Both the position numbers and the translations under genes were made by a program. Positions 8,420-62,934 of a DNA stretch of 64,000 nt are shown here, piece after piece. Location of the stretch: the NCBI GenBank assembly GCA_035568935.1, contig DATMNP010000121.1, positions 6,190 to 70,189 of the forward strand, written 5' to 3'. Positions within the stretch are counted from its first letter, which is position 1. Every line of letters starts with the position of its first letter. Below the pieces are notes generated by a model. That model was not told the origin of the DNA. It saw only the letters and a list, made by a program, of their open reading frames with translations, and ran no database searches. The stretch comes from Opitutaceae bacterium (GTDB taxonomy: Bacteria; Verrucomicrobiota; Verrucomicrobiia; Opitutales; Opitutaceae).

Positions 8420-9502
<1,083 letters not shown>

Positions 9503-9661
9503 TTAAAGAATCGCATGTGGACGCGAAGAGACCAACAAAGACCCCGCTTTTCCGCTTGGCAAGAGCCAATACACGTCACGCGCTCATGATCCTTGCGCAT
9601 ATTTTGTCATTTTACATTTCTGACGACCGATCCTTGGAAATGGGCATTCTCGCGAAAGGCT

Positions 9662-9711
9662 GAAGGGCTGAAGACTGATTTTGGATTCAGTCTTTCAGTT
9701 GTTCAGCCCTT
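9662..9711. repeat. Hairpin of ctgaagactga-type units overlapping the GH13 stop codon
   Basis: gaagggctgaagactga...tcagtctttcagttgttcagccctt. A related unit occurs at 6131-6159. No T-run follows, so it is not called a terminator. Confidence 0.6.
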
Positions 9712-12174: not shown

Positions 12175-12324
12175 GGGCGTGGAGAAGCATCGGACGTGCG
12201 CGGACGCGCACAAGCCGGAAAATTTTATCCAGGTATTTTGCTTGTTTTTAGAAAAATGCGTGCGCGGGGCTTTTCATTCGTCATTCGTGTTTGCCCCTCC
12301 CGCCAGGAATCCCACCTTAAAGAA

Positions 12325-13413: not shown

Positions 13414-13432
13414 GGTCGAGGTCGGACTACGA

Positions 13433-15181
13433 TCAGGCGGTTGCTTCCTTCACCGAATGCTTTGAGCCCTTGTCCAAATCGGGCGGCACGTTTGCGATGG
13501 CTTCTTCCATGGTCGTCAGGCCTTCCTTGACCTTGAGCATGCTGTCCTGGTGAAGCGTCTTCATACCGTTGCGCATGGCGATTTTTTTCAGCTCGGCGGT
13601 CTCGATTTCCTTGTTGATGCCCTCCACCAGCTCCTCGCTGATGACCATCAGTTCGTGAATGCCGACGCGGCCTTTATAGCCGTTGTTGGAGCACTTGGTG
13701 CACCCCTTGGGGTTGGCCTTGAAAATTTGCCCGCTCCAGCCGAGCGCGGATTCGAGAATGTCCTTTTCCCGGCCCTTGGGTTCAATGGGCACGCGGCAGT
13801 TTTTGCACACGCGGCGCATGAGGCGCTGGGCACAGACACAGAGCAACGACGACGAAATCATGAAAGGCTCGATGCCCATGTCCGTGAGGCGGGCGATCGT
13901 GCTGGGCGCGTCGTTCGTATGCAGCGTGCTGATGAGCAAATGGCCGGTGAGCGCGGCTTCGACGGCAATGTCCGCCGTCTCGCGATCGCGGATTTCGCCG
14001 ACGAGGATGATGTCGGGATCCTGGCGCAAAAAGGCTCGCAGCGCCGTGGCAAAGGTGAGGCCGATCTGCTTGTGCATCTGCATCTGGTTGATGCCGTCCA
14101 GCGTGTATTCGATGGGATCCTCGGCGGTGCGGATGACGAGCTCGGATGAATTGATTTCGTTGAGCGCGGAATAAAGCGTCATCGACTTGCCGGAGCCGGT
14201 GGGGCCGCAGTGGAGGATCATGCCGTAGGGCTGGCGGATGACTTCGCGGTATTTGACCAGATTCTCCGCGGAAAAGCCGAGGGATGCGAGCGGCAGCGTC
14301 GATTTCTGTTTGTCGAGGATGCGCATGACCACGCCTTCGCCATGGTTGAGCGGCCCGGTGGAGACGCGCAGGTCGATATCGATGCCCTTTTTTGAGTACT
14401 GCTTGAAAACAATGCGGCCATCCTGCGGCAGGCGGCGTTCGGCAATGTTAAGGTCGCACATGATCTTCAAGCGGGCCACCAGCGCGGGGCCAACCTTGGC
14501 CGGCAGCCGGAGCTTTTCCTGGCAGATACCGTCGACGCGGTAGCGGACAATCACCTCTTTTTCCTGCGGCTCGATGTGAATATCGCTGGCCCCGGCAAAA
14601 TAGGCATCCTCGATGATGCGGTTGCTGAGCTGGATGATCGGGCCGGATTCCTCGGTGACGTCCTCGATGTTAATCCCAACGTCCTTCTCGCCAAACTCCT
14701 GGCCGATCTCCTTGACGACTTCGGCAAACTGCGCGTCGCCCTGCGTACGATCCCTGATAAATTTGTCGCGGAGATCCTTTTCCCGGCTGAGCAGGCGAAT
14801 GACGCGCAGGCCCGTCATTTCAGTGATTTTATTTGGCACCGAGACCTCGAATGGATTGGCAAAGGCCACGAGGAGAAAGTTGCCCACCTTGCCCACGGGC
14901 ATCACGAGGTTCTCCTTGCAAAACTCGAGCGGCAGATGCTCGTAGGTTTCGTTGTTCACACGATAGCGGCTGACGTTGAAGGGCGCGAGGCCGAGCGCAC
15001 TCCCTTTGGCCACGAGGATTTGGAAAGGCGTAAGGTTGTAATCGTCCTGCAGCAGCCGGTCGAGGACGTCACCGGTGGGCTCACCGGGAACGGCGCCAAT
15101 GGCCGAGCATTGCTCGGGGGTGATCAGCTCCATTTCCTCGAGCTTGGCGACGATCTGGGTCTGGATTTTTCCGAGCGGCAT
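13433..15181 (-). CDS. PilB/GspE-family secretion ATPase
   Basis: N-terminal T2SSE_N-like domain, Walker A GPTGSGKS, Walker B ILVGEIRD, and a CxxC...CxxC tetracysteine motif. Confidence 0.9.
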
Positions 15182-46726: not shown

Positions 46727-47179
46727 CTAGATTCCGATGCGGCGCATGAGGTCGCCGAAGTTTTCTCCCGAGGTGCGCACCTCGACCTTGGTCCAGCGGT
46801 CGGGCGCCCAGATGGCGAATTTGTTGAGCGAGCCGACCAGGACGGCGTCTTTCGCGATCCCGGCGTACTTCAGGAGTTCGGCGCTCACGCCGAAGCGGCC
46901 CTGCTTGTCGAAGCTGAAGGAAAGGGTCTGCGCGAAGAAACGCGCGAAGGCGTCCTGCGCGTCGCGATCGGTGAGCGCCTTGGCGGAAACTTTTTCGTGG
47001 AGCTTCTCGACCTCGGCCGGCGGGAGCACGGCGATGTAACCGTCGGGGTGCGGCGTGGCCAGGAACGTATCGGTCTCTTCGTGCGCAAAACGCCAGGCCG
47101 ACGGAATCGTGAGGCGACTCTTATCGTCAAGGGTGTGCCGGAAGAGGCCGGTATAAAAAGGTTTGCCGTTTTGAGCCAT
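46727..47179 (-). CDS. mraZ: Transcriptional regulator MraZ
   Basis: Two SpoVT/AbrB-like halves carry DDKSRLTIPS and DKQGRFGVSA (DxxxR motifs). Start at ATG 47179. Confidence 0.9.
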   Translation of the reverse strand: MAQNGKPFYTGLFRHTLDDKSRLTIPSAWRFAHEETDTFLATPHPDGYIAVLPPAEVEKLHEKVSAKALTDRDAQDAFARFFAQTLSFSFDKQGRFGVSAELLKYAGIAKDAVLVGSLNKFAIWAPDRWTKVEVRTSGENFGDLMRRIGI

Positions 47180-47202
47180 GAAGGGACGGTGTAGCACAAG
47201 TG

Positions 47203-47238
47203 CCCCACCATCCCCCATTATTCCCCATATTAACCCAC
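47203..47238 (-). promoter_or_regulatory. Putative MraZ operator: four TGGG(G) direct repeats with exact 10-bp phasing
   Basis: On the plus strand, ccca occurs at 47204, 47214, 47224 and 47234. This is 25-58 nt upstream of the mraZ ATG. A TTGACT -35-like hexamer lies at 47247-47242 on the minus strand. Confidence 0.55.
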
Positions 47239-47281
47239 CGAAGTCAAGAAAACTCCTGCCCGTTTACGTAGTTTTTTGGGG

Positions 47282-47369
47282 AAAATTTGCGCTGAGACCG
47301 AAAGGTTGAGCCGTTTCAAGTTTCAGTGGAATGATCCCGAATTATCCTGAACGATTGCGAAGGCCAATG
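47282..47369 (+). repeat. Direct repeat, left copy (partner 57174-57250)
   Basis: aaaatttgcgctgagaccgaaaggttgagccgtttcaagtttcagtggaat[gatcccgaatt]atcctgaacgattgcgaaggccaatg. It is near-identical to the right copy apart from an 11-nt indel and a few substitutions. Confidence 0.85.
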
Positions 47370-47467
47370 AGTTATAAAATCAGCGGCGGCCTTCGGAAAA
47401 AATGAATCTGTAGCACCAAAGAAAATCCGTAGCATTTTCCATGTCCAGCGCTGTCCCACCATTCGCA

Positions 47468-47500
47468 TTTGTAACACACGTAAATTAATGTGTTAACAAA
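47468..47500. promoter_or_regulatory. Near-palindromic site tttgtaacacac-N9-tgtgttaacaaa (candidate operator / end-binding site)
   Basis: The TTGTAAC half-site recurs at 48227-48233 in the divergent promoter region, and inverted at 57151-57157. Confidence 0.35.
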
Positions 47501-47522
47501 TCACTCGGACATTTCGCCGCGC

Positions 47523-47549
47523 AAAACGGCTCAAGTTTTCAGTCTCAGC
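47523..47549 (-). repeat. Inverted partial copy of the repeat core
   Basis: aaaacggctcaagttttcagtctcagc is close to the reverse complement of gctgagaccgaaaggttgagccgtttc (47291-47317 and 57182-57208). Confidence 0.7.
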
Positions 47550-47650
47550 TTGGGGTGGGACGAGGGACATGGTTTGCATCGTCCCGATTTAGGCAAACCG
47601 GTGGCCAATGTTGAGGCCTCGACAAATTTCGAGACGCAGCCGTCGACCTT

Positions 47651-48211
47651 CTATAGCGAATGAGGCCTATTTGTGATTTTTTTGGTTTTGGCAATTGCTA
47701 ATCGGATCTCCTCCAATTGAGCCATGACCGAAGCAGCCTGTTCCATAGCTTGGCGCGGATCCGGGTTGTTTTTCACATGTTCTATTAGATCCGCAAGCGT
47801 CTGGGCAAATTGCTTTGTGCCACGAGTCAGTTTGTACCGCGACGATCTAATCAGCGGGACGAAACAGCTGTCATAAATTTCGCTAAACCGGCCTTTTTGT
47901 GCTGCCGACTTAGCCGGTTCAGAAAATGTGACGGGGATATAATGATCGAGCTTGCCGTGGCCAGTTGCTAACCACGCTTGGCTGACGTTCAGCACCTCAC
48001 ACACTCGGTCGCCTACAATCCACGGAAGAGGTACGCGCCCATGCTCATAGCTCGATAACCTGTCGCTGCTCACACCAATTCTGACGGCTAGAGCTGATCG
48101 CTTTGCGAGGCAGTTCTCACGTATATCGCGCAATCTTTGGCCGATTGCCTTCTCTCTTTCTGGAACTGGATTTTGCCTGGGCACGATAAAATCATTGGTC
48201 TCCCCCAACAT
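47651..48211 (-). CDS. XRE/cI-type repressor
   Basis: HTH IGQRLRDIRENCLAKRSALAVRIGVSSDRLSSYEHG. Divergent from the Ner-like gene. Start taken at ATG 48211 (MLGETNDF). Confidence 0.65.
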   Translation of the reverse strand: MLGETNDFIVPRQNPVPEREKAIGQRLRDIRENCLAKRSALAVRIGVSSDRLSSYEHGRVPLPWIVGDRVCEVLNVSQAWLATGHGKLDHYIPVTFSEPAKSAAQKGRFSEIYDSCFVPLIRSSRYKLTRGTKQFAQTLADLIEHVKNNPDPRQAMEQAASVMAQLEEIRLAIAKTKKITNRPHSL

Positions 48212-48253
48212 AGTGCAAGATTGCGCTTGTAACGTACACAGAAACACGGAAAC
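48212..48253. promoter_or_regulatory. Divergent control region between the repressor and Ner-like genes
   Basis: A 42-nt spacer containing cttgtaacgtacacag. Confidence 0.4.
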
Positions 48254-48640
48254 ATGATTCTCGTGACCCAAGGCACGACTACACTCAGGGCTATTCTCGC
48301 CATGCGCGGTCTTTCGCATTCTTATCTTGCAAATCAAATCGGTCTATCCCGCGGCACCGTCAAAAACATCTCATGTGGAAGCAGCCCTAGTCTACGTGGC
48401 CGGAGTAAGATCGAGAATTTTTTAGGGATTCCTATTGCGTGGCCTACACGACTGCCTCGCAAAAATGCCACCGGCTTCCAGATCACTTGCGCCGCACCAG
48501 CAAACACACTGCAGGGATCGAAATCCGAGCTTCCCCTACCCTTGCCATCTGAGCCTGTAACACGGGACAGCGTGGACGGGGTCGGTCACTCACAGAGCCA
48601 CAACAAAATCCTGGAAATAATCAATGAGCAGCCTGGTTGA
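48254..48640 (+). CDS. Ner-like DNA-binding protein
   Basis: LRAILAMRGLSHSYLANQIGLSRGTVKNISCG...IENFLGIPIAWPTR parallels the phage Mu Ner pattern (...LS.SALSRQ.G....T..N......I.N.L.....IWPSR). Confidence 0.6.
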   Translation: MILVTQGTTTLRAILAMRGLSHSYLANQIGLSRGTVKNISCGSSPSLRGRSKIENFLGIPIAWPTRLPRKNATGFQITCAAPANTLQGSKSELPLPLPSEPVTRDSVDGVGHSQSHNKILEIINEQPG

Positions 48641-51473
48641 ACTCATCTTCTCCGCCGTTGGCACCGAGGCGGCGGGGAGCGCCATCGAAGGCGTCAGCGG
48701 TAAGATCGCGGACATGACCCGCGAGCTCGGCCGCTTTGCGACCGTCGGCCTGACGGTCGAATCCGCGTTCGAGGGCGTCAAGGGCGCCCTGGCAGACGGG
48801 GAAATGTTTACCCAGCTAAAGGCCAGGACCGGCGAGAACATCAAGGATCTGGTCGTCATGACCCAGGAGTTCAAAAACGCCGGTCTTGGTGCCGAATTTA
48901 TCGGGACTTCGGCGAACCTTCTCCAGCGCGCCCTGGGCGGCGTCAACGAGATGGGGGGGCGGACCGAAACGGCATTTCAGCGCCTCGGCACTTCCATTGC
49001 CCAACTCAAGCCGCTGACCTATGCGCAACAGCTGCAGGTGCTGGGCGAAGGTTTTTCGAAAATCCAAAACCAATCTGAACGCGCCAATATCGCGATGCAG
49101 ATTTTTGGCCGCGGCGGCGGAATGATGCTGCAGCTGCTCGGCGATCCGAAGGCAATGAAGGAAGCGGCGGAGCAGGCCGGCCGCTACGGCGACATGATGC
49201 AGCAGAACGCTGCGCACCTCAAGGAGGTCGAAGAGCATCTTGGCGTGGTGAACCAACGCATGAAGGAATTGTATCTCACGGCTGCGGAGTCGTTGCTCCC
49301 GACGATGGAAAACATTGCCGGCCTTTTTAAAGAGCTAGATCTCAGGCCGGTGGGGTCATTTCTCGGCGGCTCCGTTCCGATCGTATTTGCCTCGGGCATG
49401 GCCACAATGCTGGTCAAAACGTTGGACAATTCTGTTCTCGATTGGGCAACGCGCTCGGGAAACCCAATCGGCCAGGCTTTCGCTGGGCAATTCGTCGCTC
49501 CTATTACCGGTCTTTTGTCTCGCGCGCTTCCAGTGGCATTAGCGGCGGCTATTGGATTCGCTATAGGAAAAGGCATTCACGATGCGATCGACGAGGCCCG
49601 CGCCAATGAGATCAATAAATTATCCGCGATCGAGGGTGACGTGGGAGACACGACGACGAAGGACCTCCATGGTTTGCGCGATGCGACGAATCAAGGCGAA
49701 CTCGACGCCGCCAAGAATCAAATCCGCGCGGACATCAAGGAGGCACAGTTCACGATCTATGAATTGTCCAGGAAGAAAAAATTGCATGACGAAGGCGCGG
49801 CGGCTGGACCATGGGCCGGACCCAAGTTCAACGAGGAAGATCAAACCCGCCTCGACGCCACCAAGCAGCAACTGGAGACGCTGCAGCGAACATTCGATCA
49901 TCCGGTCAATGCGCAGTCGATTTTCGCCCAGAATAAGCTCAAGGAAATCCGCGAGTCCCTGGAACCTCTCGTCACCGATTTATCGCAGCTTCGCGAGCAA
50001 AACGACAAGCTGACGATGCAGGACATGGATCCGGCGCAAAAGGCGAAGCTGCTGCAGTCCAGGCGCACCGACGTCGAGAGCCAGCTAGGCCAGACCATGC
50101 CGGCCGGCCTGGATAAAGATTCGGTCGAGGCGCGGCGGCTCAGCCTGGAAAATCAGCTTCTCGAAATCAAACACCAGCAGGCCGAGAACAACGCGAAGCT
50201 CACGGAGCAGGAAACCAAACTGACCGAAGAGAAAAAGAAGCAAGCTGACGCCGCGGAGCGCCAGCAAGTCTATGCCCTGGAGACGCAGATCAAGGTCGCC
50301 GAGGCGGCCGGCAACGATCAGCTCGCGCAAAAGCTGAAGCAAGAGCTCGAACTCAAGCAGGCGCAATATTCGATGTCCGGGCTCGATCTGGATCTTGCAA
50401 AGCAGCGCCTCTCGGCCGAACTACAGATTTTCGAAGCGGAGCAAAAGCAAAAGGGCGCCAAGGCAGAAATCGAAGCGGAAAAGAGCGCCCTCGAAAAACA
50501 GCTTTCGGACATCCGTGAAAACATCGCCTCCATGCAAGGCGACGAAACTCATACCCAGGCCGAACAATGGTCCACGCGCAAGCAGGCGATTGAGGAAGAA
50601 ATTGCCACAATCAAAAAGACGATCGACACGGAGAATGCGCTGGCGGCCGCTGCGCGTGGACCTGGTGGTGCTGGTGAGCAGGTCGCGGTCCTGCATGACA
50701 ATGCCGCGACGCAGGCCAGCAACCAGCTCGCCGGCGCGCAGCATGAGAAAGCGGGTCTAGGACCAAACCCCGACGATGTTGGCGAGCAATTGCAGGTAGA
50801 GAGCCAAAAGGTGGCAAACAGCATGGGCACGGTCGCGGAGCAGATCGGCCGCTCCTGGGGGAGCGCCGCCGAATCGATGCGTTCCTCGATGGCGAATTCG
50901 CTTTACGATATGCTGGAGCATACGCGCAATTTCAAGCAGGCCGCCGGCGCGCTTTATATCTCGCTCGTGCAGGACCTCGCTCGCAGCGGCTCGCAGATGG
51001 CCTCGAATTGGATGATGACGCATGTTGTCATGGACGTGGCTCGCCGTGGGTTTCATGCGCTGGGCGTAGGCGAACAGGCAACCGCCACCGGCACGGAGAC
51101 CACAATCCATACCGGCGGCGAGGCGGCTAAAACGGCTGCGACAGCAGGTGGAGCGGCGGCACGCGGCGGAATTCGAATACTGGAAACGGTTTTTCACGGC
51201 ATCCAAGTTGGAATCAGGACGACGATGCATATCGCGGGAGAAGCCATGCAAACCGCCGTAACGATGGTGCAAACCGGCTTGCGCATCGCTGCTGCCATTG
51301 CTGAATCGATCGCTAAAATCATAAGCGCGGCCGCGGGCGCAATGGCGGCGATGGCTTCCATTCCCTATGTCGGCCCGATCCTGGCGGTCGCGGCCATGGC
51401 CGCGATCGTCGCGGCAGGCATCCAGGGCATCGCTCACGAAGTATCGATGAGCAATATCCGCAAATACGCTTGA
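48624..51473 (+). CDS. Tape-measure-like protein (TMP N-terminal core, long coiled coil, G/A-rich hydrophobic tail)
   Basis: ETAFQRLGTSIAQLKPLTYAQQLQVLGEGFSKIQNQSERANIAMQIFGRGGGMMLQLLGD is TMP-core-like. Residues about 330-640 are E/K/Q/L-rich. The C-terminus is ...AAAGAMAAMASIPYVGPILAVAAMAAIVAAG. Confidence 0.65.
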   Translation: MSSLVELIFSAVGTEAAGSAIEGVSGKIADMTRELGRFATVGLTVESAFEGVKGALADGEMFTQLKARTGENIKDLVVMTQEFKNAGLGAEFIGTSANLLQRALGGVNEMGGRTETAFQRLGTSIAQLKPLTYAQQLQVLGEGFSKIQNQSERANIAMQIFGRGGGMMLQLLGDPKAMKEAAEQAGRYGDMMQQNAAHLKEVEEHLGVVNQRMKELYLTAAESLLPTMENIAGLFKELDLRPVGSFLGGSVPIVFASGMATMLVKTLDNSVLDWATRSGNPIGQAFAGQFVAPITGLLSRALPVALAAAIGFAIGKGIHDAIDEARANEINKLSAIEGDVGDTTTKDLHGLRDATNQGELDAAKNQIRADIKEAQFTIYELSRKKKLHDEGAAAGPWAGPKFNEEDQTRLDATKQQLETLQRTFDHPVNAQSIFAQNKLKEIRESLEPLVTDLSQLREQNDKLTMQDMDPAQKAKLLQSRRTDVESQLGQTMPAGLDKDSVEARRLSLENQLLEIKHQQAENNAKLTEQETKLTEEKKKQADAAERQQVYALETQIKVAEAAGNDQLAQKLKQELELKQAQYSMSGLDLDLAKQRLSAELQIFEAEQKQKGAKAEIEAEKSALEKQLSDIRENIASMQGDETHTQAEQWSTRKQAIEEEIATIKKTIDTENALAAAARGPGGAGEQVAVLHDNAATQASNQLAGAQHEKAGLGPNPDDVGEQLQVESQKVANSMGTVAEQIGRSWGSAAESMRSSMANSLYDMLEHTRNFKQAAGALYISLVQDLARSGSQMASNWMMTHVVMDVARRGFHALGVGEQATATGTETTIHTGGEAAKTAATAGGAAARGGIRILETVFHGIQVGIRTTMHIAGEAMQTAVTMVQTGLRIAAAIAESIAKIISAAAGAMAAMASIPYVGPILAVAAMAAIVAAGIQGIAHEVSMSNIRKYA

Positions 51474-51476
51474 GCC

Positions 51477-52019
51477 ATGACCATGAAGGCACGCAATACC
51501 AGAGACCAGGAGAGCGAACGCGCAATTTTTCTGCACGAAGTTTTTCTCAAGATCAAAAAACGCATCGCAAATGGTGACACACTGAAATCCGCCATCGCTT
51601 GGGCCGCCCGCCGCCGTAATTTCCGCCTGATCCGCGAGGGAATGCTCGGGGAAAACAGGTTGGTCGCCTTATATTATATTTGGCGCCAGAATCCATCGCC
51701 CAAGGTTTTTCACAGGCATTACAAGGGGCCGGAGCGGCGTATTCCAATTGACCTGGCATTGGAAGCCTTGAACCGCATGGCAGGCGATAAAGTCCGGCCA
51801 GCAGCGATCGTGATCCGCGAGCTGCGCAACGATTTCTCAGCGGGCCAGCGGATCACCGATGCGACGCTGAAACTCCTCGCGAGCATCGATGCCTTTAACA
51901 ATCGGTTCGAGCTTCTACTCTTTCGCCTTCGGACGCGTCACTGGGAAACCAGCAACGCCGCTGCAATCCTCGAATTCAAGGCTGAGGGGACAAGCGCCAA
52001 AGCTGCAGGCAGCAACTGA
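51477..52019 (+). CDS. Hypothetical protein
   Basis: ATG 3 nt after the TMP-like stop. No family recognised. Confidence 0.5.
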   Translation: MTMKARNTRDQESERAIFLHEVFLKIKKRIANGDTLKSAIAWAARRRNFRLIREGMLGENRLVALYYIWRQNPSPKVFHRHYKGPERRIPIDLALEALNRMAGDKVRPAAIVIRELRNDFSAGQRITDATLKLLASIDAFNNRFELLLFRLRTRHWETSNAAAILEFKAEGTSAKAAGSN

Positions 52020-52027
52020 TTCTCCGC

Positions 52028-52375
52028 ATGAACGCCCGTAAAAAACCTGGGATATTGCCCCGGCTGCAGCTGATGCAGCCGGGGCAGATCGATGCCCTGG
52101 TCAAGTGGCTGGCTGAAGATAAGCTCACCTATGCCCAGGCGCGCCAGAGATTGAAGACTGAATTTGGTGTGGTCACGACCGACTCCGCGCTTTCGGGTTT
52201 TTGGCAGCAAGTCGTCGCCCCACGGCAATGGGCAAAGTTGGTCACCGCTGAGCGAGCCAAAGTCTTTGTCGGTGAAAGTAGAATCCTTCTCGAAATCCAG
52301 GTGCGGGCAGAAGCAGACAATACACTCCGCATCACCGTGTCCGGCCCAGCCGCGGCTGCAACCACACCGGCCTGA
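52028..52375 (+). CDS. Small hypothetical protein (weak resemblance to Mu gp27/DUF3486-type HTH proteins)
   Basis: ILPRLQLMQPGQIDALVKWLAEDKLTYAQARQRLKTEFGVVTTDSALSGFW. The similarity is judged by eye only. Confidence 0.45.
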   Translation: MNARKKPGILPRLQLMQPGQIDALVKWLAEDKLTYAQARQRLKTEFGVVTTDSALSGFWQQVVAPRQWAKLVTAERAKVFVGESRILLEIQVRAEADNTLRITVSGPAAAATTPA

Positions 52376-52377
52376 CC

Positions 52378-52719
52378 ATGAAAATTGACTGGCCACGGGT
52401 ACTTGCCCGCCTCGAACGCGAAAATCGCGTCTGCCTAAAAGTCAGGGAAGCGGCGGATATTTTTGGCGTCTCTGGTGCCCATATCGTCAATTTTATTGAG
52501 GACGGGACACTTACCGCCATCGACTTCGCCCGCCGGGAGAAGCCAAACAAGCACTGTTACCGTATCCCGGCAGACTCGTTGATGGAATTTGCCCGCCGCC
52601 GCTCTACCATGGCCAGCGACGGATCAGACCCTGAATCGCCAGTGAAATCGAACGTGAAGGAATACCCTGGCGTCCTGCTTTACCTAAGTAGGGCCGCGCG
52701 CGAGCTAAATCATTCCTGA
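52378..52719 (+). CDS. Excisionase/MerR-type HTH protein
   Basis: CLKVREAADIFGVSGAHIVNFIEDGTLTAIDF...YRIPADSLMEF is typical of excisionase-family HTH domains. Confidence 0.5.
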   Translation: MKIDWPRVLARLERENRVCLKVREAADIFGVSGAHIVNFIEDGTLTAIDFARREKPNKHCYRIPADSLMEFARRRSTMASDGSDPESPVKSNVKEYPGVLLYLSRAARELNHS

Positions 52720-52745
52720 CGATCTGCTATACTGATTCTAATCCT

Positions 52746-55358
52746 GTGAATGCTCTCTCTCCAAGCCGCCAATCCCAGCTGATGCCAGCAGAAATGCCGA
52801 CGTTTGGGTTTAAGGGCCCTTTGTCTCCCGCGGCGGGTCAAGCGCCGGTGGGTGGCGGGAAAATGGCGGGAAGCCCAGTTGCAAGAGCTGCAAGGACTTG
52901 TTCTATAACGCGTCAAACTTCGGTGCAGGCTGGCGCGCTGGCCAGCAAGCCGGTTGTTTTAACGGCCGCACAGGTCGGTGTGGCACTCGGACGCCCTGCG
53001 CGCAGCATCCGCCGAGACCTTGCGGGGATTGAATCCGATGGCACCGTCATCACAAGCGGTAACCCAACGCAGTCCTGGGCGCTTTCTAATCTGCCGCCCA
53101 AGCTGCAATCAGCCCTGCAAACTGAAGCCACGCGGCGGGGTTACGCATCAGTCGAGCGTTTGCTTGAATTTCCGCCTCAACGCTGGGAGCCAGTGCAACC
53201 GCTTAACTCGTTGGATCCTGCGCCGGTGGCAGAGGCATCGAAACTTCAGAAGGCGCTCGCCCCGACCCTGCTCCGCCTTTCAGACCTGAGCCTCTCCCAG
53301 GAGGAAATCTCCGCACGGGGTCTGGCAGAATATACGGCCGCTTTTGGCCACTCTGTTTCAAAACGCCATTTTGATCGGCTCCTGAAACGCACGCTCGACC
53401 GGGATGCTGGTGCAGAGGATTGGTCGCGCCTGGAGTTATTTTTGCCCGACAGGTTGGCGACGAAGAAATCCACCGCGATCTCATTTGGATTTTCCGAAAA
53501 TTGGCCGGGAGTTTTAGCCACCGTGGCCATGGTAAAGGATGTGGCCAAACCAACGAGCGATGAACTTTCGCTTTTTTGGGATGCCGCCTGCGCCGACTAC
53601 GAGGCCGCGGTTGAGTCCGGGATGCCTGAACGGCGAGCCCGTCGTGAGCTGCGAAAAATGATCGAGGCCAAAGTGTCTTTTGTTCGCTCTTCCGGGCGCG
53701 CCCTTGAGCAAAAATTTCGTCGGGTGTTGGAAAAATGGATAGAGGGCGATCGCACAGCGACGGCCGTGGCCGATCTCCGGCACGAAAACTCCGGGCGCAA
53801 AAAACCCGTAACACTACCGAAGGAATTCAAAGAAAAACTTTTGGCGCGGGTACACGGCAACGGCGGCCGGTATGCGCAATCGTGGCGAGAAGCGATCAAA
53901 CAAGGGTGGATGCCCGCCGACGTTGCAGCCGCTTACCCTTTTAACTGGGAGCACAAATCTTACGTCCCGGCCGCCATTCGCAGCGCACTGGGGCCTGATG
54001 TTGAGATATTGAAGCCGCTGCGCATCGGCCCCAAGAATGCGCGGCTTAAGGGATCGTATATCAGCCGGGACTATTCCAACGTTCCTTCGGGAAAAATTTT
54101 CTCCTCCGACGACTGTACCGCGCCGATCTTCTTTTGGGTCCCTGATGAGACCGGCCGGCCGCTCCTCAATGATGCAGGAAAGCCCATAATAACTCGCGGC
54201 CAGTGGTTGCCGTGGATCTGCGCACGCACTCAATTCATTGTTACTTTTCAACTTATCCCGGAACGTGGTTACGATTCCATCGAGATCCTGCGCGGCATCG
54301 GACGCCTTCACGACGAATATGGCCTCCCGGAGCAATTGCTTTTCGAAAACGGAATCTGGAAATCCAGGTTAATCGATGGCACCCGTCAAGAAGGTGTCGA
54401 GTTGCCCGACTACTTCTTCGGATTAGCCGGGGTTGGAGTGAGAATTCGGCACGCCCGGCCTCGCAATCCACGCGCGAAGATCGTCGAGAGTGTCCTTGGC
54501 CAATTGCAAAATCAGATGGACCGGCTGCGCGGCTACGGGGGACGGAAGCCCGATCAAATCCCAGAAGAAACCCAGCGCGCGCAGCTATTGGTGGGACGTG
54601 GAGAGGCGCATCCAAGCGAATTCTTCTACTCGCATCCAGAGGTGGTCAAAGTCTACGAGGGCATCTGCAACAATTTCAATGAAGAGCCTCAGAACGGAAA
54701 AATGCTGGAGGGGCTGAGCCCCCGCGCAGCATTTGAGAAACTGCAGGAATCGCCGCCGATGAAACTGACACCAGAGCTTCGATATCTCCTCGCCCGCTCT
54801 CGCGTCGAGACAACGGTAAAACCGAATGGCATCCAGATCGGAAAATTTTGGTACAAGGGCGAGCGAGCGTCCGCCCTGGTTGGGCAGCGTGTTTTAGCCT
54901 GGTTCAACGCCGAGCATCCGGAATCGATCTGTGTAACAGACTTGGATCATAAAAACCCGTTCACCCTCCGCCGTACCGACGAAGTTCCTGCTTTCGACGC
55001 AACACCGGAGCAGTTCGCGGCCGCCGAGCGCGCAAATCACGCCCAAACCAAATATCAGCGCACACTGTTTGGGAATCTGATCCACAATTTTCCAGAAGAA
55101 TTCCTTCGCCGTCGACGTGGCGTCGTCATCGCACCCGAACAAGCTGTCGCTCTCGGCATTGAAATGGAAAACCAGCGGCAGCAAAACAATGAAGAGGCCA
55201 CAAAGACGGAGCGGCGCCGTGCGAAGGGCGAGCGGCACGCGCGCGCGGTTGGTTTAAATGGCCTCGGTCGCCGGGTAGATGATGAAACAGTTGAAGCTCT
55301 GGGCAGGCTTGAGCGCGCCGGAGTGAAAGCCACCAACCCATTAGCCGAACAGCCATGA
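52746..55358 (+). CDS. MuA-like DDE transposase
   Basis: The core aligns by eye to MuA. IFSSDDCTAPIFFWV matches WNGDGYLHNVFV, WLPWICARTQFIV matches TWFWQDVKTRKIL, LLFENGIWKS matches ITIDNTRGAANK, and RAKIVESVLG matches QAKPVERAFG. The track start is GTG 52746; ATG alternatives are 52782 and 52863. Confidence 0.75.
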   Translation: MNALSPSRQSQLMPAEMPTFGFKGPLSPAAGQAPVGGGKMAGSPVARAARTCSITRQTSVQAGALASKPVVLTAAQVGVALGRPARSIRRDLAGIESDGTVITSGNPTQSWALSNLPPKLQSALQTEATRRGYASVERLLEFPPQRWEPVQPLNSLDPAPVAEASKLQKALAPTLLRLSDLSLSQEEISARGLAEYTAAFGHSVSKRHFDRLLKRTLDRDAGAEDWSRLELFLPDRLATKKSTAISFGFSENWPGVLATVAMVKDVAKPTSDELSLFWDAACADYEAAVESGMPERRARRELRKMIEAKVSFVRSSGRALEQKFRRVLEKWIEGDRTATAVADLRHENSGRKKPVTLPKEFKEKLLARVHGNGGRYAQSWREAIKQGWMPADVAAAYPFNWEHKSYVPAAIRSALGPDVEILKPLRIGPKNARLKGSYISRDYSNVPSGKIFSSDDCTAPIFFWVPDETGRPLLNDAGKPIITRGQWLPWICARTQFIVTFQLIPERGYDSIEILRGIGRLHDEYGLPEQLLFENGIWKSRLIDGTRQEGVELPDYFFGLAGVGVRIRHARPRNPRAKIVESVLGQLQNQMDRLRGYGGRKPDQIPEETQRAQLLVGRGEAHPSEFFYSHPEVVKVYEGICNNFNEEPQNGKMLEGLSPRAAFEKLQESPPMKLTPELRYLLARSRVETTVKPNGIQIGKFWYKGERASALVGQRVLAWFNAEHPESICVTDLDHKNPFTLRRTDEVPAFDATPEQFAAAERANHAQTKYQRTLFGNLIHNFPEEFLRRRRGVVIAPEQAVALGIEMENQRQQNNEEATKTERRRAKGERHARAVGLNGLGRRVDDETVEALGRLERAGVKATNPLAEQP

Positions 55359-56971
55359 TTAAACCCGCTCAACTCGAAGAAGTGGCCGCCGCAGGCCCAA
55401 TTCTAGGCCACCATGCCGGCCAGACCGTTGCCTATATCTCCGATCCGAAAAAGAGACCATTAATATGGTTTCTTCACTGGCGCTCTCACCAGCCGGGCGG
55501 TCTCAAGCGGTTTTGTTACGAACTAATCAACCGGAATCTTCGTGCCCGACTTGGCTCAGAAACTATGCACCGGATCGGATTTAATCCATCAACGGTCTAC
55601 GCTGGGCAGCCTTTCGAGGATATCTGTAACGAGCTGTCTTTTTTCCCTTCTGGGGCGCGCAATCATCTTGAGTGGACGATCGAGATTCACGCGTCGATAT
55701 TTAGAGGGCTTGAACAGGACGGCGAATTAGCGAAGGCAAAAAAGCTTCTTAGCCCAGAGAGCCGGCGGGCCTCGGCGGCAACATTCCTTAACGAATGCCG
55801 AGATTTGGCATGCTCTGGCCTGGCGCATCACATTCGGAATTTCTGCAGCGATCACAGCGCAAAGTGGGAAGTCCGATATCTTCACGACTTGGTCGGAGCC
55901 ATCACCGAGATGATGAAGGACCAGGCTGACTTCGCCCGCTCTCAGACCGCCGAAACAAAAATTGCGAGTAATGTAAGCGATACCCTTGAGTTTTCCTATC
56001 GGACGCGCGGCCTGGTTGTCATTTACGGAATCGAGCGGATCGGTAAAACCAAAGCGGCAGAACGATGGGTTGCGATGAATCCAGACAAGGCGCGGCTAAT
56101 CCGGTTGACCGCCACCACAAATGACCTCCTGTTTTTTTCCGAGGTGGCCGAAGCGATCGGTTGCGGAGACATGCGCGGCCAGACGGTCGGTGAAATGCGC
56201 GACCAAATTCGGGGCACGGTGAAGAGCCGGGATCTGATGCTGATTTTTGACGAGGCCCACTGCCTCTTCGGCCTTTCTCCCAAGGGATCTATTAAACGCC
56301 TGGAGTATATTCGCACTGAACTTGTGAACAACGATATCCCAGTTGCGCTCATCATCACCCCGCAGTTCGCAAATCGGCTGGCCGGCCTAGAGCGCTCGAC
56401 CGATTTCAACCTCAATCAATTTAGGGGCCGGGTCACAAAATGGGCGGAACTCCCTGCGAAGCCCTCGCGCGCTGATATCGAGAGCATTGCCCGCTTCGGT
56501 CTTCCAGAAATTGACGACAAATGCCTTGCCTTGTTGGCAGATTCCGCGGCTGGCAGCGAATTCCCGCTTGCAGCGTTGCACAACGCCATTCTGGAAGCGA
56601 AAACCATTATAGAAAAAAACGGTAGCGCAATCACGCTGGATCTGGTCAAGCAGGCGGTTGGATTTGCCATGTGGACCACCGCCCGGCTCGCGGAAACAAT
56701 CCCGGCTCCCGCCTCCAAAACAACAAAGCGGCGTAATCGCGTCGTGACGGTCGATACGTCGATGTCGAGCCGTGCTTCTGGTGATGGGTTGCAAGCTGCA
56801 TCGCCGGCGGTTGCAGGCCGCCTGCAATCTCCTGGAAACGATACCTCTCTAACGGCCGCACAATCACCCGATCGCGGTTCAATGCCAGGCCGCTCGATCA
56901 TCCCTTATGACGAGCCAATATCGAGCAGCCGTCAGCGCCAGGGCGTTTTGATTCCAGCATCCATTTTGTGA
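55355..56971 (+). CDS. MuB/TniB-like AAA+ transposition ATPase
   Basis: Walker A YGIERIGKTKAA and Walker B LMLIFDEAH. ATGA overlap with the transposase stop. Confidence 0.7.
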   Translation: MIKPAQLEEVAAAGPILGHHAGQTVAYISDPKKRPLIWFLHWRSHQPGGLKRFCYELINRNLRARLGSETMHRIGFNPSTVYAGQPFEDICNELSFFPSGARNHLEWTIEIHASIFRGLEQDGELAKAKKLLSPESRRASAATFLNECRDLACSGLAHHIRNFCSDHSAKWEVRYLHDLVGAITEMMKDQADFARSQTAETKIASNVSDTLEFSYRTRGLVVIYGIERIGKTKAAERWVAMNPDKARLIRLTATTNDLLFFSEVAEAIGCGDMRGQTVGEMRDQIRGTVKSRDLMLIFDEAHCLFGLSPKGSIKRLEYIRTELVNNDIPVALIITPQFANRLAGLERSTDFNLNQFRGRVTKWAELPAKPSRADIESIARFGLPEIDDKCLALLADSAAGSEFPLAALHNAILEAKTIIEKNGSAITLDLVKQAVGFAMWTTARLAETIPAPASKTTKRRNRVVTVDTSMSSRASGDGLQAASPAVAGRLQSPGNDTSLTAAQSPDRGSMPGRSIIPYDEPISSSRQRQGVLIPASIL

Positions 56972-57173
56972 ACCGCAACTTACCCTCTTCTTTTCTAACC
57001 GGGATCCATTCCAAGCACAATCGCCGCTAACCCTCCACCACACTTCATTTTATAGTCCAATTCCGACCGTTGATTCGGCCATTTTTTACCGGGCATTTTG
57101 ACCCGGTTTTTGTGTTTCCCGCGACTTTTGGACATCTGACACTCAAAACGTTACAACTTTTCGGTGACTGTAC

Positions 57174-57250
57174 AAAATTGCGCTGAGACCGAAAGGTTGA
57201 GCCGTTTCAAGTTTCAGTGGAATCATCCTGAACGATTACGAAGGCCAATG
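57174..57250 (+). repeat. Direct repeat, right copy (partner 47282-47369)
   Basis: aaaattgcgctgagaccgaaaggttgagccgtttcaagtttcagtggaatcatcctgaacgattacgaaggccaatg. Confidence 0.85.
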
Positions 57251-57817: not shown

Positions 57818-57883
57818 CCCAGCCATGTTTCCAGGGCGCTTATGCCGACGTATCTCTTTTTTTGACCTGTCCCCAATCCGACA
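57818..57883 (+). repeat. 66-nt direct repeat, copy A
   Basis: cccagccatgtttccagggcgcttatgccgacgtatctctttttttgacctgtccccaatccgaca has 3 mismatches to 62545-62610. It is followed by tandem ccccaatccgaca units. Confidence 0.85.
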
Positions 57884-58046
57884 CCGTCCCCAATCCGACA
57901 CCAATCCGACATCCAAAATGCCGAGCAATGCCAGCTTCAGCTATTTTGTATATTAGGCGAAAAACTCATGTAAGGATCATACACTTCTGGCCGATTGGCG
58001 AAATTGGAGGCGCCCCCTCTTTTCACTAAGGGATATTAGAGCATGA

Positions 58047-59600
58047 TTAGGGCATGGCTTTTAGAGAGAGGGCCGCCTGCATGGCGGTCCCCAGCGAATG
58101 AAGCGTGGCGGGTTTGAGCAAGAGCTGGCGAATGCCCGCCGCTTCGACTTGTGCAGCCGTGAGCGACGCGCTGTATCCGGTCATTAAGATGATGGGTAAC
58201 TCGGGACGGATTTGCAGGAGCTGGATCGCGAGATCAAAGCCCGTCATCACAGGCATGGTCTGGTCCGTAAGCACGAGCGCAAAGCGTAGCGGATCGGCTC
58301 GCACCATGGCGAGCGCAGCTGCGGGCTGCGTCGTGATTTTGACCTCGTAGCCGAGCGCAGCTAATGCGTTCTGGCCAAGATGGACGAGTACGTCCTCGTC
58401 ATCGACAAATAGCACCTGTTCGCCATGACCGCGTGGTACCGCTCCCTGCTCGACCGCGGCCGTTGTGGCCTCGCCGGCATGCGCGGGAAAATAGAGGTAA
58501 AAGATGGTTCCCTCGCCAGGCTGGCTGTGAACCGTGACCGCGCCGTCGTGGTTTTTCATGATGCCATGTAGCACGGACAAACCCAAGCCGGTGCCTCCAC
58601 AGCGCGGCCTCGTCGTGAAAAACGGTTCAAAAGCCCGCTGCACCGTGGCCAAATCCATACCGCATCCGGTATCACGGACGGACAGGCGCGCGTAGTCGCC
58701 CGGCTTTAGCTGCGCTTGCGTGGCAGCAAAGGTCTCATCGACCAGGTATTTTTCCAATTTCACTTGTATCTGACCGGGGCGGTCTTTCATCGCGTTCCAG
58801 GCGTTGGTCCCTAGGTTCATCAGAATCTGATGAATCTGGGTCGCGTCGGCGAGCACCGTGGGAACATCCGACGCGAGCGACGTATCAAATTCGATGGTCG
58901 AAGGGATCGTCGAACGCAACAGTTCGAGACTTTCGGTTATCACTGGCTGTAGATGGATCGGCCGGCGCTCCAGTGGCTGCTGGCGGCTGAAGGTGAGAAT
59001 CTGCCGCACGAGATCGGTGGCGCGTTTCGACGCCTGCAAGATCGCGCCGAGATGAACGCGTACCTCGGAATTTTCCTTCAGCTTCATCTGCGCGAGCTCG
59101 GTATAACCCATTATCGCAGTCAGGATGTTATTGAAGTCGTGCGCGATTCCGCCGGCCAGCGTGCCGATCGCCTCCATCTTTTGCGCCTGCCGGAGTTGCT
59201 CCTCGATATTACGATGCTCCGCGTGCAGTCGGCTGGATTCCAAGGCATGGCTGACGGCTGACTCCAAACGCGCCAATTGACCTTTTAGCAGGTAATCCGC
59301 TGCGCCTAGCTTCATCGCCGCAACGGCGGTATCTTCGCTGATGGTTCCCGACACAATGATAAACGGCACCTCCAGTCCGTGCTGTTTCAGCACCTCCAGT
59401 GCACGCAGCCCGCTGAATTGCGGCATCTGGGAGTCCGACAGTACCAGGTCGAGCCCGTCGTGCAGGTGCTCGAGAAATGCCGCCTCGGTATCCACCCGCT
59501 GCCAGTCGGGCTCGAACCCGGCGTGGCACAGGCTTCGCACCAAGAGCTCGGCATCGGCGGAGCTGTCTTCGACGATCAGGATTTTGATTGGATGTGGCAT
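58047..59600 (-). CDS. Hybrid histidine kinase with N- and C-terminal receiver domains
   Basis: ILIVEDSSADAELL...DLVLSDSQMP (REC1), [11 protein letters not shown] (H-box), [18 protein letters not shown]...ALVLTDQTMP (REC2). Confidence 0.85.
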   Translation of the reverse strand: MPHPIKILIVEDSSADAELLVRSLCHAGFEPDWQRVDTEAAFLEHLHDGLDLVLSDSQMPQFSGLRALEVLKQHGLEVPFIIVSGTISEDTAVAAMKLGAADYLLKGQLARLESAVSHALESSRLHAEHRNIEEQLRQAQKMEAIGTLAGGIAHDFNNILTAIMGYTELAQMKLKENSEVRVHLGAILQASKRATDLVRQILTFSRQQPLERRPIHLQPVITESLELLRSTIPSTIEFDTSLASDVPTVLADATQIHQILMNLGTNAWNAMKDRPGQIQVKLEKYLVDETFAATQAQLKPGDYARLSVRDTGCGMDLATVQRAFEPFFTTRPRCGGTGLGLSVLHGIMKNHDGAVTVHSQPGEGTIFYLYFPAHAGEATTAAVEQGAVPRGHGEQVLFVDDEDVLVHLGQNALAALGYEVKITTQPAAALAMVRADPLRFALVLTDQTMPVMTGFDLAIQLLQIRPELPIILMTGYSASLTAAQVEAAGIRQLLLKPATLHSLGTAMQAALSLKAMP

Positions 59601-60062: not shown

Positions 60063-62122
60063 GATGTAGTTTCCTTTTCCAGGGTGAAATAAAACGTCGC
60101 TCCACGATCAATGGCCGCCTCCCCCCACACCCGCCCGCCATGGCGTTGGATGATTCGCTGTACGATGGCGAGACCGACGCCCGTGCCCTCGTAGTCCTCC
60201 GCGCGATGCAACCGCTGGAAGACGCCAAAGAGTTTGTTGGCATAGCGCATGTCGAAGCCGGTGCCATTGTCGCGGACAAAAAAAGTTTCGGCACCGTTGG
60301 TCTTCATGCAGCCGATTTCCACCACGGTTTTTTCCCGCTTGCGCGTATATTTCAGTGCGTTCGAGAGAAGGTTCAGCCAGACTTGTTTCAACAATACCGG
60401 ATCGCCTGGACTCGCCGGCAAGTCTCTGGCAAGAATCTCGACCGATCGGTCCGACCACGGGGATCCCAACTCGTCGAGCGCATCGCGCACGAGTTTGCCG
60501 GTGTCAATTACCCGTTTGTTCAGTTCCTGGCGATTGAGCCGCGCAAACGTCAGCAAGTCGTCAATCAACGCGCCCATCCGCTGCGCGCCTCCACGGATGG
60601 TCTGCAAGTAACGCCGACCTTCCTCCGGCAACTGAGGGCCGTAATCCAGCAGCACCGCTTGCGAAAATCCATCCACGGCGCGCAACGGAGCGCGCAGATC
60701 GTGCGACACGGAGTAGGAGAATGCCTCCAGTTCTTTGTTCGCTGTTTCCAATTCAGCCGTGCGTTGGATCACACGCTGCTCGAGTTCGGTGTTGAGTTGC
60801 CGGACGGTTCCTTCCGCCGCCTTGCGCTCGGTAATGTCGGCCCTGATGGCGACGTATTGGCGGGGTTTGCCCCGGTCGTCGAGAAACGGCACGATGGTCG
60901 TGTCCACCCAGTAAAATGAACCGTCTTTTGCCTTGTTCTTGATTTCACCATGCCACACGCGCCCGTGCCCGATGGTCGTCCATAGCTTATGGATGAACTC
61001 TTTGGGGTGGTAGCCGGAGTTGATGATGCGATGGTCCTGGCCGAGCAACTCTTCACGCGAGTACTTGGAGATGGTGCAGAACTTGTCGTTGACGAAGGTG
61101 ATCTTTCCCCGCGAATCGGTGATCGCCACGATCGCGTGCTCGTCGAGTGCTGCCTTCAGGTCGAGCACTTCCTTGGTCGATGCCTTCAACTTTTCTTCCG
61201 CCGTCTTGCGCTCGGTGATGTCGGCGCGGATGGCGACGTATTGGCGGGGCTTGCCCTGGTCGTCGAGAAACGGCACGATGGTCGTGTCCACCCAGTAAAA
61301 TGAACCGTCTTTTGCCTTGTTCTTGATTTCGCCATGCCACACGCGTCCGCGCCCAATGGTCGTCCACAGCTCATGGATGAACGCTTTGGGATGATAGCCC
61401 GAGTTGATGATGCGGTGATCCTGGCCGATCAACTCTGCGCGAGAGTACTTGGAGATGGTGCAGAACTTGTCGTTGACGAAGGCGATCTTTCCCCGCGAAT
61501 CGGTGATCGCCACGATCGCGTGCTCGTCGAGTGCTGCCTTCAGGTCGAGCACTTCCTTGGTCGATGCCTTCAACTTTTCTTCCGCCGCCTTGCGCTCGGT
61601 GTTATCGGTGCCGATCAGCAGATAGCCGATGATTCCGGCTTGCGCGTCGCGCAGCGCCGTGACCGACACTACCGCCGGGAACCGGCTGCCGTCCTTGCGG
61701 ATGTAGGTCAATTCATAGATGTCCTCGATCCCGCGCGAGGCCTTGAAGACCAAAGCTTCGAAACCCGGCGCGATGGGAGTGGCGAACTCGAGGCTCAATC
61801 CGGTGGCGCGCGCAATCAATTCCTGCGGGTCGGAGATTTCGGCCGGGGTGCTCTTGTTCAATACGTCAGCGGCCGCATAGCCAAGCATGCGCTCGGCGCC
61901 GACATTGAAAACCTGGATTACACCCTTCTCGTCGGTGGCGATGCTGGAAAAGTTGGCGCTGTTGAGAATCGCATTCTGCAAGATCCCGGCCTTGAGCACA
62001 GCCTCTTTGCGTCGAGCTTCGGTGATCACTTCCACCGAGGCACATGCAAGCAGTTCGGCCTCTTTGGGGAGCAAGGGTGGTTTCATGGGTGATAGCGGGA
62101 CCAGCGGAACTCTTTGGAACAT
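60059..62122 (-). CDS. Multi-PAS sensor histidine kinase
   Basis: Three PAS units, then [14 protein letters not shown] (H-box), DNGTGF and [13 protein letters not shown] overlap with the response regulator start. Confidence 0.85.
60830..61597 (-). repeat. Tandem duplication (2 x 384 nt) encoding two near-identical PAS units
   Basis: Residues 176-303 and 304-431 differ at only a handful of positions ([38 protein letters not shown]...). Confidence 0.9.
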
Positions 62123-62544: not shown

Positions 62545-62610
62545 CCCAGCCATGTTTCCAGGCCGCTTATGCCGACGCATCTCTTTTTTTGACCTGTCCC
62601 CAATCCGACA
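62545..62610 (+). repeat. 66-nt direct repeat, copy B
   Basis: See 57818-57883. Confidence 0.85.
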
Positions 62611-62934
62611 TCCATTATTTTCCGGTTAAGAAAGCCGGCCATACCCCGATTTCCCCGGGTGAGTTTCGGGGTTCAAATTGACAACCTTATGCAAAGCTAA
62701 TCCGGTTGCTTTTTGGTTGGTGCCTTAGTTAGTTTTCCCTACCCCAACCCATCCCACCGAGCCCTGCCCGTGCAGTCAGTTGCTCAGGGCACTACCCCCT
62801 CTTTAGCGTCATCTGGATGATGAACAATACCCCTAGTCAGCAGCGTCAATCCCGGGTCTCTTCCCCTCGCTTGGCAGCTCGTCGGCGCCGGCGAGTTCAG
62901 CGGCACCAGCCAGCCTGACTTTTTTTCAGAGTCC

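Follow-up and report, generated by a model that had tools for sequence, protein, structure and literature searches.

A tail tape-measure protein homologue in a compact Mu-type element upstream of mraZ in an Opitutaceae bacterium

The 64,000-nucleotide stretch of Opitutaceae DNA analyzed here (contig DATMNP010000121.1, positions 6,190 to 70,189; hereafter the window) raises the question of why a phage tail tape-measure protein (TMP) should be encoded in a transposition operon that contains no tail genes. The open reading frame (ORF) in question, 48624-51473 on the forward strand, lies within a discrete element of 9,887 bp (47288-57174) with TG...CA termini and eight ORFs, two of which encode a MuA-like transposase and a MuB-like ATPase. 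Outside it, the window is typical chromosomal DNA that includes FtsZ, the dcw cluster, histidine kinases and a type II secretion system ATPase. The comparisons below tip the balance slightly toward a TMP that a compact Mu-type element retains as a working component, in a satellite-like family of Verrucomicrobiota. The element itself resembles a phage satellite of a transposase-driven, previously undescribed kind more than a chance remnant of a prophage.

The initial annotation described the 949-residue product (ATG start) as a TMP-like N-terminal core followed by about 300 residues of coiled-coil type and a hydrophobic tail rich in glycine and alanine, and all three parts are borne out. TAFQRLGTS and SERANIAMQIFGRGGGMMLQLLGDP are both found at residues 116-175, and the PHROGs profile phrog_9483 'tail length tape measure protein' covers residues 70-237 (E=1.6e-12), alongside phrog_2854 (E=2e-7 over residues 76-934) and phrog_27190 (3e-4). 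Residues 400-700 form long, charge-rich helices, with a composition that agrees with a coiled-coil-type stretch. Hydrophobic segments lie at residues 246-264, 290-319 and 888-940, and the final 150 residues contain 34-41% Gly+Ala. The AlphaFold2 model is nearly all helix, at low confidence (mean predicted local distance difference test score, pLDDT, of 56); its named BFVD matches at E<=1e-3 are almost exclusively to tail or tape-measure proteins, at low TM-scores and with a best E of 5e-8. The protein is therefore long, mostly α-helical and furnished with hydrophobic segments, as is typical of a TMP. The tail cluster in which such a gene would be sought in its own genome is missing, no tail genes being found beside it in the element or the window. 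The Pfam check proposed earlier gives no match for the window copy, nor do NCBIfam and PADLOC, whereas the PHROGs profiles do return TMPs. A search of 50,697 deposited phage genomes also gives zero matches, and only 14 relatives are found among 5.8 billion clustered proteins, which indicates that the subfamily is rare.

The closest homologues are four phage TMPs (P0002, P0003, P0005 and P0007), with 36-45% identity over 82-97% of the length of the window protein, and each occupies the TMP slot of a complete siphovirus-type tail module. In these modules an ORF of 137-156 residues at the chaperone position and, in three of the four phages, an ORF of 33-35 residues precede the TMP, which is followed on its 3' side by a Phage_BR0599 protein of ~680 residues, two small ORFs and a Phage-tail_3 protein of 900-1000 residues. 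Collectively, these matches identify ORF 48624-51473 as a genuine homologue of phage tail TMPs. The earlier statement that it is the sole morphogenesis-like gene here also holds: the other ORFs of the element have no virion match, and when the ORFs of the related phages are compared with the window by tblastn, the TMP alone is recovered. As a separate observation on the phages, a diversity-generating retroelement (DGR; mtd, bAvd and reverse transcriptase) is located upstream of the chaperone and TMP genes in L004 (5860-8514), L005 (977-3631) and L007 (1939-4593), and an Mtd_N protein is encoded at 756-2783 of L009. In their DGR/Mtd genes, these four loci are similar to the hankyphage-like transposable phages of Bacteroidales.

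For the element as a whole, the boundaries are precisely defined. Identical 5-bp target-site duplications, AAATT, are found at 47283-47287 on the left and 57175-57179 on the right. The left end, 5'-TGCGCTGAGACCGAAAGGTTGAGCCGTTT... (47288-47369, forward strand), carries the terminal inverted repeat and a transposase-site-like motif; its first 33 nt, aligned without gaps to the reverse complement of the right end, agree with it at 22 of 33 positions, and the left TG at 47288 occupies one alignment column that is kept in five elements. L012, a contig from another metagenome, terminates exactly at window position 47287. At the right end (TTTTGGACATCTGACACTCAAAACGTTACAACTTTTCGGTGACTGTACA-3', 57126-57174, forward strand), a block is kept in the window and in the related elements L025-L029, following the pattern TTTGGACAT.AGACA...AAA.G.GACAAC.TTT..G....TACA in all six, and the similarity halts at ...TACA, which corresponds to 57174. 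Duplications are recognized in the relatives as well, being perfect in L026 (CCAAC/CCAAC), exact after a one-base shift of the junction in L027 and L028, and matching at 4/5 positions in L029. Subterminal inverted repeats, TGTAGCACC...GTAGCATTTTCCATGTCC, lie at 47409-47446, and the end motif recurs in inverted form at 47521-47549; these blocks (47409-47549) are kept in the window, L026 and L027. The left terminus was first placed at the TGT at 47409, and was moved to the TG at 47288 on the basis of the five-junction alignment and the 5-bp duplication.

Complete tail clusters surround only the closest homologues of the TMP, whereas seven members of the element family carry the gene in compact MuA/MuB elements. 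The proposal that homologues always lying in tail clusters would make this copy a random remnant thus applies to the closest homologues and not to the family. The related elements (L numbers) were found by transposase search and then by TMP profile searches, and six of them besides the window element, seven in all, contain a TMP gene. That of L025 (1007 residues) is 35-37% identical to the window TMP over 800-850 residues and is found in the same synteny, with the TMP, homologues of the 115-residue and HTH_17 ORFs, MuA and MuB. The gene also lies upstream of MuA in L026 (828 residues) and L027 (819 residues), and directly 3' of MuB in L047 (identical to L038; 821 residues), L048 (902 residues) and L050, where the contig end cuts the gene. 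The transposases of these last three elements are only 33-36% identical to the window MuA, and the L047 TMP is matched by Pfam PF10145 PhageMin_Tail (1.5e-9) and by about a dozen TMP PHROGs. That frames of 819-1007 codons remain open in DNA of ~60% G+C across such diverged elements implies selection.

Other virion genes are distributed unevenly over the family. The TMP is the only one in the window element, L025 and L026. L027 additionally encodes a protease-like protein, which shares 60% identity over 193 residues with the L001 phage protease, and a capsid protein (phrog_1005, 2.9e-15). A capsid protein (phrog_283, phrog_1005) is also encoded in L047 and L048, together with a head protein of 267-273 residues whose counterpart in the head modules of phage loci L001, L004, L006, L059 and L060 shares 30-36% identity with it. 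In L024, from a Verrucomicrobia metagenome-assembled genome, portal, protease and capsid genes lie immediately upstream of MuA (5806-13786) with no TMP, which suggests that this family member is a capsid-forming variant. Among more than 40 MuA loci, no homologue of the tail-tube or terminase genes of the sampled phage regions is found, these regions starting near the protease and capsid genes and mostly containing neither portal nor terminase genes; the only portal in the MuA loci is the PHROG match of L024. The flanks are cellular wherever they could be identified (L025, L027, L028, L029 and L048), and no element has a full virion gene set. By these comparisons, the family consists of small elements with partial and variable virion gene sets, derived from the phage lineage in which the TMP homologues are found. 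At the level of the family, a simple internal-deletion remnant of a Mu-like prophage was considered and rejected: no single deletion could yield the gene order, both ends are intact and the same architecture is seen repeatedly. As a side observation, L052 (7409-12579; also L051) contains two MuA/MuB pairs on opposite strands, arranged head-to-head and meeting at ~10000, which may be two elements inserted back to back.

The relation of these genes to phages is not uniform in its closeness. When compared with phage loci L001, L004, L006, L007 and L059-L061, the virion genes of the elements reach identities of 60% for the protease, 34-35% for the capsid, 30-36% for the head protein and 36-45% for the TMP. 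The nearest relative of the window TMP is a phage protein, P0002 (45%), ahead of the TMP of element L025, and the L025 TMP is in turn nearest to phage TMP P0007 (41%). Since the two element TMPs are closer to phage TMPs than to each other, despite 63% identity between the corresponding MuA proteins, the pattern is the one that would be expected if the elements swapped their TMP for versions fitting current helpers.

The suggestion in the initial annotation that the locus marks a satellite-like element is thereby favored in its main part, by the bounded 9.9-kb MuA/MuB transposon, the presence of the TMP in six other elements and the virion genes of one phage lineage; the helper that it also envisaged was not found. 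As in a satellite, the element is small and integrated, its virion set is incomplete, its gene content is of a kind that would act on helper virion assembly, and the virion-related genes are homologous to those of one candidate helper siphophage lineage. According to the proposed mechanism, lifting of the repressor, probably by helper infection or induction, would lead to joint expression of the transposition proteins and the TMP from one operon, and the element would multiply through MuA/MuB transposition. The element TMP would then take the place of the helper TMP in helper-built tails, giving chimeric tails comparable to those of PLE and ICP1. Packaging would occur in helper heads, or in heads made of the element's own capsid protein in those relatives that have capsid genes, and in the new host the element would transpose into the mraZ-proximal site. 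Helper dependence, incorporation of the TMP into tails and packaging are the steps that we infer.

Several points weigh against this reading. No helper phage was found, and no other phage genes are present elsewhere in the window. No packaging function, whether small terminase or pac site, is recognized in the element, and the TMP is not accompanied by a tail assembly chaperone or hub gene, unlike in PLE. The closest phage TMP is only 45% identical to the window protein. L028 and L029, which are close relatives, encode a 532-residue protein instead of a TMP, and the TMP is therefore not essential to the element type. All evidence is comparative and comes from metagenome contigs. Finally, a C-terminal module of ~105 residues is absent from the window TMP only.

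This last point deserves closer inspection, because it bears on what the window copy can do. The module is present in the six other element TMPs and in every phage TMP, and it follows the pattern GG.xG...AG..H..E.V.SAPA..., then H.YLD.S.Y..A...D..GIAHEV, in an alignment of 12 sequences besides the window TMP that includes five complete element TMPs and four phage TMPs. In the window protein the hydrophobic segment runs directly into QGIAHEV, so that ~105 residues have been lost in frame, and the final 16 residues can still be aligned with the C-terminus of the family. The protein is the same in three independent assemblies, which rules out an assembly artefact and is no gauge of selection; the loss is not an assembly error. 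The three copies of the element are mutually identical, and the nearest TMP relative of the window protein is the 45% identical one mentioned above. In siphophage TMPs such as lambda gpH and that of TP901-1, the C-terminal part engages the tail tip. Because the conserved module is lost, the window copy may be unable to start tail assembly, and it may represent either a modified protein that interferes with tail assembly or a weakening, decaying copy. The same loss makes somewhat more plausible the earlier proposal that the protein was co-opted as a membrane-active, exclusion or DNA-transfer factor.

If the truncated protein interferes with assembly, it could serve as a decoy that ties up chaperone, tube or tip proteins of a siphophage, whether infecting or co-resident, and blocks its tails, either protecting the host population or favoring the element. 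The architecture of the window TMP lends itself to such a role, since it retains its N-terminal core, long helical stretch and hydrophobic segments but is missing the module of all other family members, and the gene appears to belong to an early, repressor-controlled operon. Moreover, tail assembly and TMPs are known targets of mobile-element defenses, namely Rta of PLE11 (PMC12987554), a prophage assembly blocker (PMC10884400) and Tai in PICIs (PMC11364771). However, the six other element TMPs are full length and include the module, so interference by truncation is not a role of the whole family; PADLOC returns no match, and no known defense acts via a decoy TMP. Such a decoy is on balance unlikely, although it deserves some weight.

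The same deletion may instead be a sign of decay. The family would have taken up phage virion genes, and the window member would now be shrinking, with an idle TMP as a non-functional leftover. Of five elements whose size was measured, that of the window is the smallest (the four relatives range over 10.7-13.0 kb); it has the fewest virion genes, with neither capsid nor protease, and its in-frame loss is unique; relatives with no TMP, L028 and L029, also exist. On the other hand, the 949-codon frame is intact, its last residues still align with the family C-terminus and it is tightly packed in the operon. The identity of the protein in three assemblies counts here only insofar as it excludes an artefact. 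A leftover is judged quite unlikely, and retention of the TMP as a working part of the element remains the preferred reading.

A role in DNA delivery or transposition may also be envisaged, in which the TMP would enter the cell together with the DNA and protect or bridge the linear, host-flanked ends of the element for integration by MuA. The association of the TMP with MuA/MuB in diverged elements, whether upstream of MuA or downstream of MuB, fits this scheme, as does the fact that the TMP is the virion protein that leaves the tail before the DNA. In this role the TMP would be an analogue of the N protein of phage Mu, which is injected. No DNA-binding domain is detected in the window TMP with Pfam, PHROGs or NCBIfam, and L028, L029 and L024 have MuA and MuB intact yet lack a TMP. 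Such a helper function is improbable.

The insertion site recurs among diverged elements. The left termini of the window element and of L026, L027, L028 and L029 are all found 103-124 nt upstream of the mraZ start codon, the intervals from mraZ to the terminus being 47179-47288, 2602-2706, 2225-2329, 3415-3529 and 3298-3423, respectively. The transposases of L026-L029 are 50-58% identical to that of the window, and the MraZ proteins 58-75% identical. The insertion point is located just past conserved repeats of the GTGGG/TGGGG type (47190-47240, reverse strand), which look like an MraZ operator as in E. coli. An insertion ~108 nt upstream of mraZ, beside these repeats, may alter expression of the dcw operon. 

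Immediately to the right of the element, a solo left end of 72 nt (57179-57250, forward strand), which shares the last base of the right duplication, is 95% identical to 47288-47369 with a 10-nt indel, and TGCGCTGAGACCGAAAGG is a motif confined to positions 47288 and 57179. Its location directly after the right-hand target duplication points to repeated insertion at the same nucleotide position. The arrangement fits a new insertion at the spot of an older copy, with an overlap at the first base of the latter, which would later have been reduced to a solo end. The 76-87-nt direct repeat that results (47283-47369 and 57174-57250) was also considered as an integrase att site and rejected, as no integrase is present, the conservation of right ends halts at 57174, and what recurs here is simply the element's left terminus.

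Turning to the remaining genes of the element, a CI-like helix-turn-helix (HTH) repressor is encoded on the reverse strand (47651-48319; HTH_31 3.8e-9 and Phage_CI_repr 2.5e-4 in Pfam, and phrog_2328 'transcriptional repressor' 7e-9). It is divergent from the operon and has homologues in the equivalent position in L026-L029. The first gene of the operon (48254-48640, forward strand) encodes a Ner-like HTH protein with weak matches (HTH_3 1e-3, HTH_35 4e-3, phrog_769 5e-5), kept in L026 (53% identity), L027 and L029. Its segment 48254-48319 overlaps the longest reading of the repressor on the opposite strand, and the ORF is uncalled in public assemblies; the repressor probably starts further downstream than its longest ORF reading. 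The TMP was initially placed between ner and the transposase and described as translationally linked to both sides. On the ner side, the Ner-like ORF overlaps the TMP start by 17 nt; on the other side the packing is also tight (a 3-nt gap), but the neighbor is a 180-residue ORF and not the transposase, from which three ORFs (51477-52019, 52028-52375 and 52378-52719) separate the TMP.

The 180-residue ORF (51477-52019, forward strand) has a C-terminal motif in common with ORFs of 174 and 177 residues beside the TMP genes of L026 and L027, and no family match in Pfam, PHROGs or NCBIfam. Its candidacy as a tail assembly chaperone was rejected on an hhalign comparison with the ORFs at the chaperone position of the phages, which returns a probability of 0.1%. 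The 115-residue ORF (52028-52375, forward strand) is kept across the element family, with homologues just upstream of MuA in L025 (70% identity), L026, L027, L028, L029 and L019, and gives no match in Pfam, PDB or BFVD. A small terminase, proposed from a likeness to Mu-type DUF3486, finds no support in these three databases, and the AlphaFold2 model has a pLDDT of 61; this assignment was likewise dropped. The 113-residue protein that follows (52378-52719, forward strand) is a DNA-binding protein of the HTH_17 type, excisionase/MerR-like (Pfam HTH_17 6e-7), with a homologue in L025 and an HTH_17 ORF at the equivalent position in L047.

The MuA-like DDE transposase (52923-55358, forward strand, with an alternative GTG start at 52746) is matched by phrog_310 'transposase' (2.4e-25) and by Pfam Mu-transpos_C (1e-4, just above the curated cut-off). 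Residues D444, D511 and E569 are invariant in ten homologues, with a spacing of 67/58; the corresponding spacing in the phage Mu transposase is 67/56. No BLAST-level match to this protein is found in the 50,697 deposited phage genomes, and a MuA pattern scan of viral contigs matched only one contig of 6.6 kb. The MuB-like AAA+ ATPase (55355-56971, forward strand; AAA_22 5e-11, phrog_296 'DNA transposition protein' 7e-21) has phage Mu MuB as its sole PDB match (8xvb, E=0.005). A terminator-like hairpin at 57088-57117 (forward strand) closes the operon, and a hairpin followed by a T-run is found at the equivalent place in 6/6 aligned right ends, with differing stem sequences.

In the chromosomal surroundings, the host dcw cluster (mraZ, rsmH, ftsL, ftsI, murE, murF...) lies to the left of the element and two-component system genes to the right. 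Across 38615-62073, all 41 of 41 differences from L010, and all 10 of 10 single-nucleotide polymorphisms and a 9-nt indel relative to L011, are located left of 47017, in dcw genes. Over the element and for at least 4.9 kb beyond its right end, the three assemblies are identical, a pattern that recent spread or a recombination tract may explain. In L010, a contig from another sample, 595 bp (58712-59306) are missing from a hybrid histidine kinase gene (58047-59600), whose product is called at 317 residues instead of 517. A 66-nt direct repeat, 97% identical and with reiterated GTCCCCAATCCGACA motifs (57818-57916 and 62545-62615), brackets a three-gene two-component operon consisting of a PAS kinase, a response regulator and a hybrid kinase. 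Three tandem repeats of 384 nt (60808-61615; 83-92% identity over aligned stretches), presumably repeated PAS domains, are found in a gene for a 687-residue PAS-domain kinase.

In a wider context, these elements may constitute an undescribed class of satellites, to which we assign somewhat less than an even chance: one moved by MuA/MuB transposition and not by an integrase, homing ~105-125 nt upstream of mraZ, exchanging virion modules (TMP, capsid, protease, portal) with siphophages of Verrucomicrobiota, some of them DGR-bearing. No description of a MuA/MuB satellite type with mraZ homing was found in the literature searched. Satellite families in the cited literature are integrase-borne wherever their mobility is stated, and satellite-encoded TMPs were recognized only in 2025-2026 (PMC12822802, PMC12987554). 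If correct, the class would widen the definition of a satellite, and the size of a satellite genome would not need to match the capsid of the helper, because a transposon could be excised from any headful of flanking DNA after injection. It would also offer a handle on the interplay of phage, host and satellite in Verrucomicrobiota, for which, to our knowledge, almost no cultured phages exist.

Among known systems, the closest parallel in the use of a TMP is PLE of Vibrio cholerae with its helper ICP1. PLE satellites encode their own TMPs, distant from that of the helper, which replace the ICP1 TMP in chimeric tails (Mathur, Boyd et al., Nature 2026, PMC12987554). Both PLE and the window element are islands with a partial virion set and their own TMP. 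PLE is not reported to have MuA/MuB, encodes a tail chaperone and a baseplate hub, and exploits a myovirus (PMC12987554). In contrast, the window element is a MuA/MuB transposon in which no chaperone or hub is found, and its related phages are siphovirus-like. Putative tmp genes are also present in PLE-like elements and cf-PICIs (PMC12987554), and the EPIP satellites of Mycolicibacterium contain a TMP gene (PMC12822802). cf-PICIs (PMC12987554, Extended Data Fig. 10) and EPIPs (PMC12822802) are small islands with a subset of head genes, some with a putative TMP, and are paralleled by L024, L027, L047 and L048; the window copy differs from them in having no head genes. EPIPs use a serine integrase, and the gene maps of cf-PICIs show a predicted integrase, whereas the present family relies on a DDE transposase with an AAA+ partner. 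Proteins of mobile elements that act on tail assembly or the TMP are likewise known among tail-targeting defenses (Rta of PLE11, the blocker of PMC10884400, and Tai, PMC11364771); Rta, however, is a small protein of 80 residues that targets the phage TMP and is not itself a TMP homologue (PMC12987554).

The transposition machinery and its control resemble those of Mu, the B3/D3112-type phages and the hankyphage-like 'Mubacviridae' (bioRxiv 10.64898/2026.05.11.724261), with a divergent repressor, a Ner-like gene and an A/B-type transposase and ATPase, and with TG...CA termini, subterminal repeats and a 5-bp duplication. The family members, however, measure 10-13 kb instead of 35-40 kb, lack lysis genes as well as any complete head or tail module, and are inserted at one fixed site, whereas Mu-like phages insert nearly at random. 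Compared with Tn7-like transposons, TnsA and TniQ/TnsD are not recognized in any ORF of the element (Pfam, NCBIfam, PHROGs), the sole PDB match of the ATPase is MuB, and a phage-type repressor/Ner switch and virion genes are present; a divergent target selector may be hidden among the small ORFs. If the homing is confirmed, this would be a natural targeted MuA/MuB system with no recognizable TniQ-type selector. The element nonetheless shares with Tn7-like transposons a transposase of the MuA/TnsB type with an AAA+ regulator, ends of the TG...CA type and a 5-bp duplication, together with a constant spacing between the insertion and a conserved gene and the stacking of a new copy beside an older one at the attachment site.

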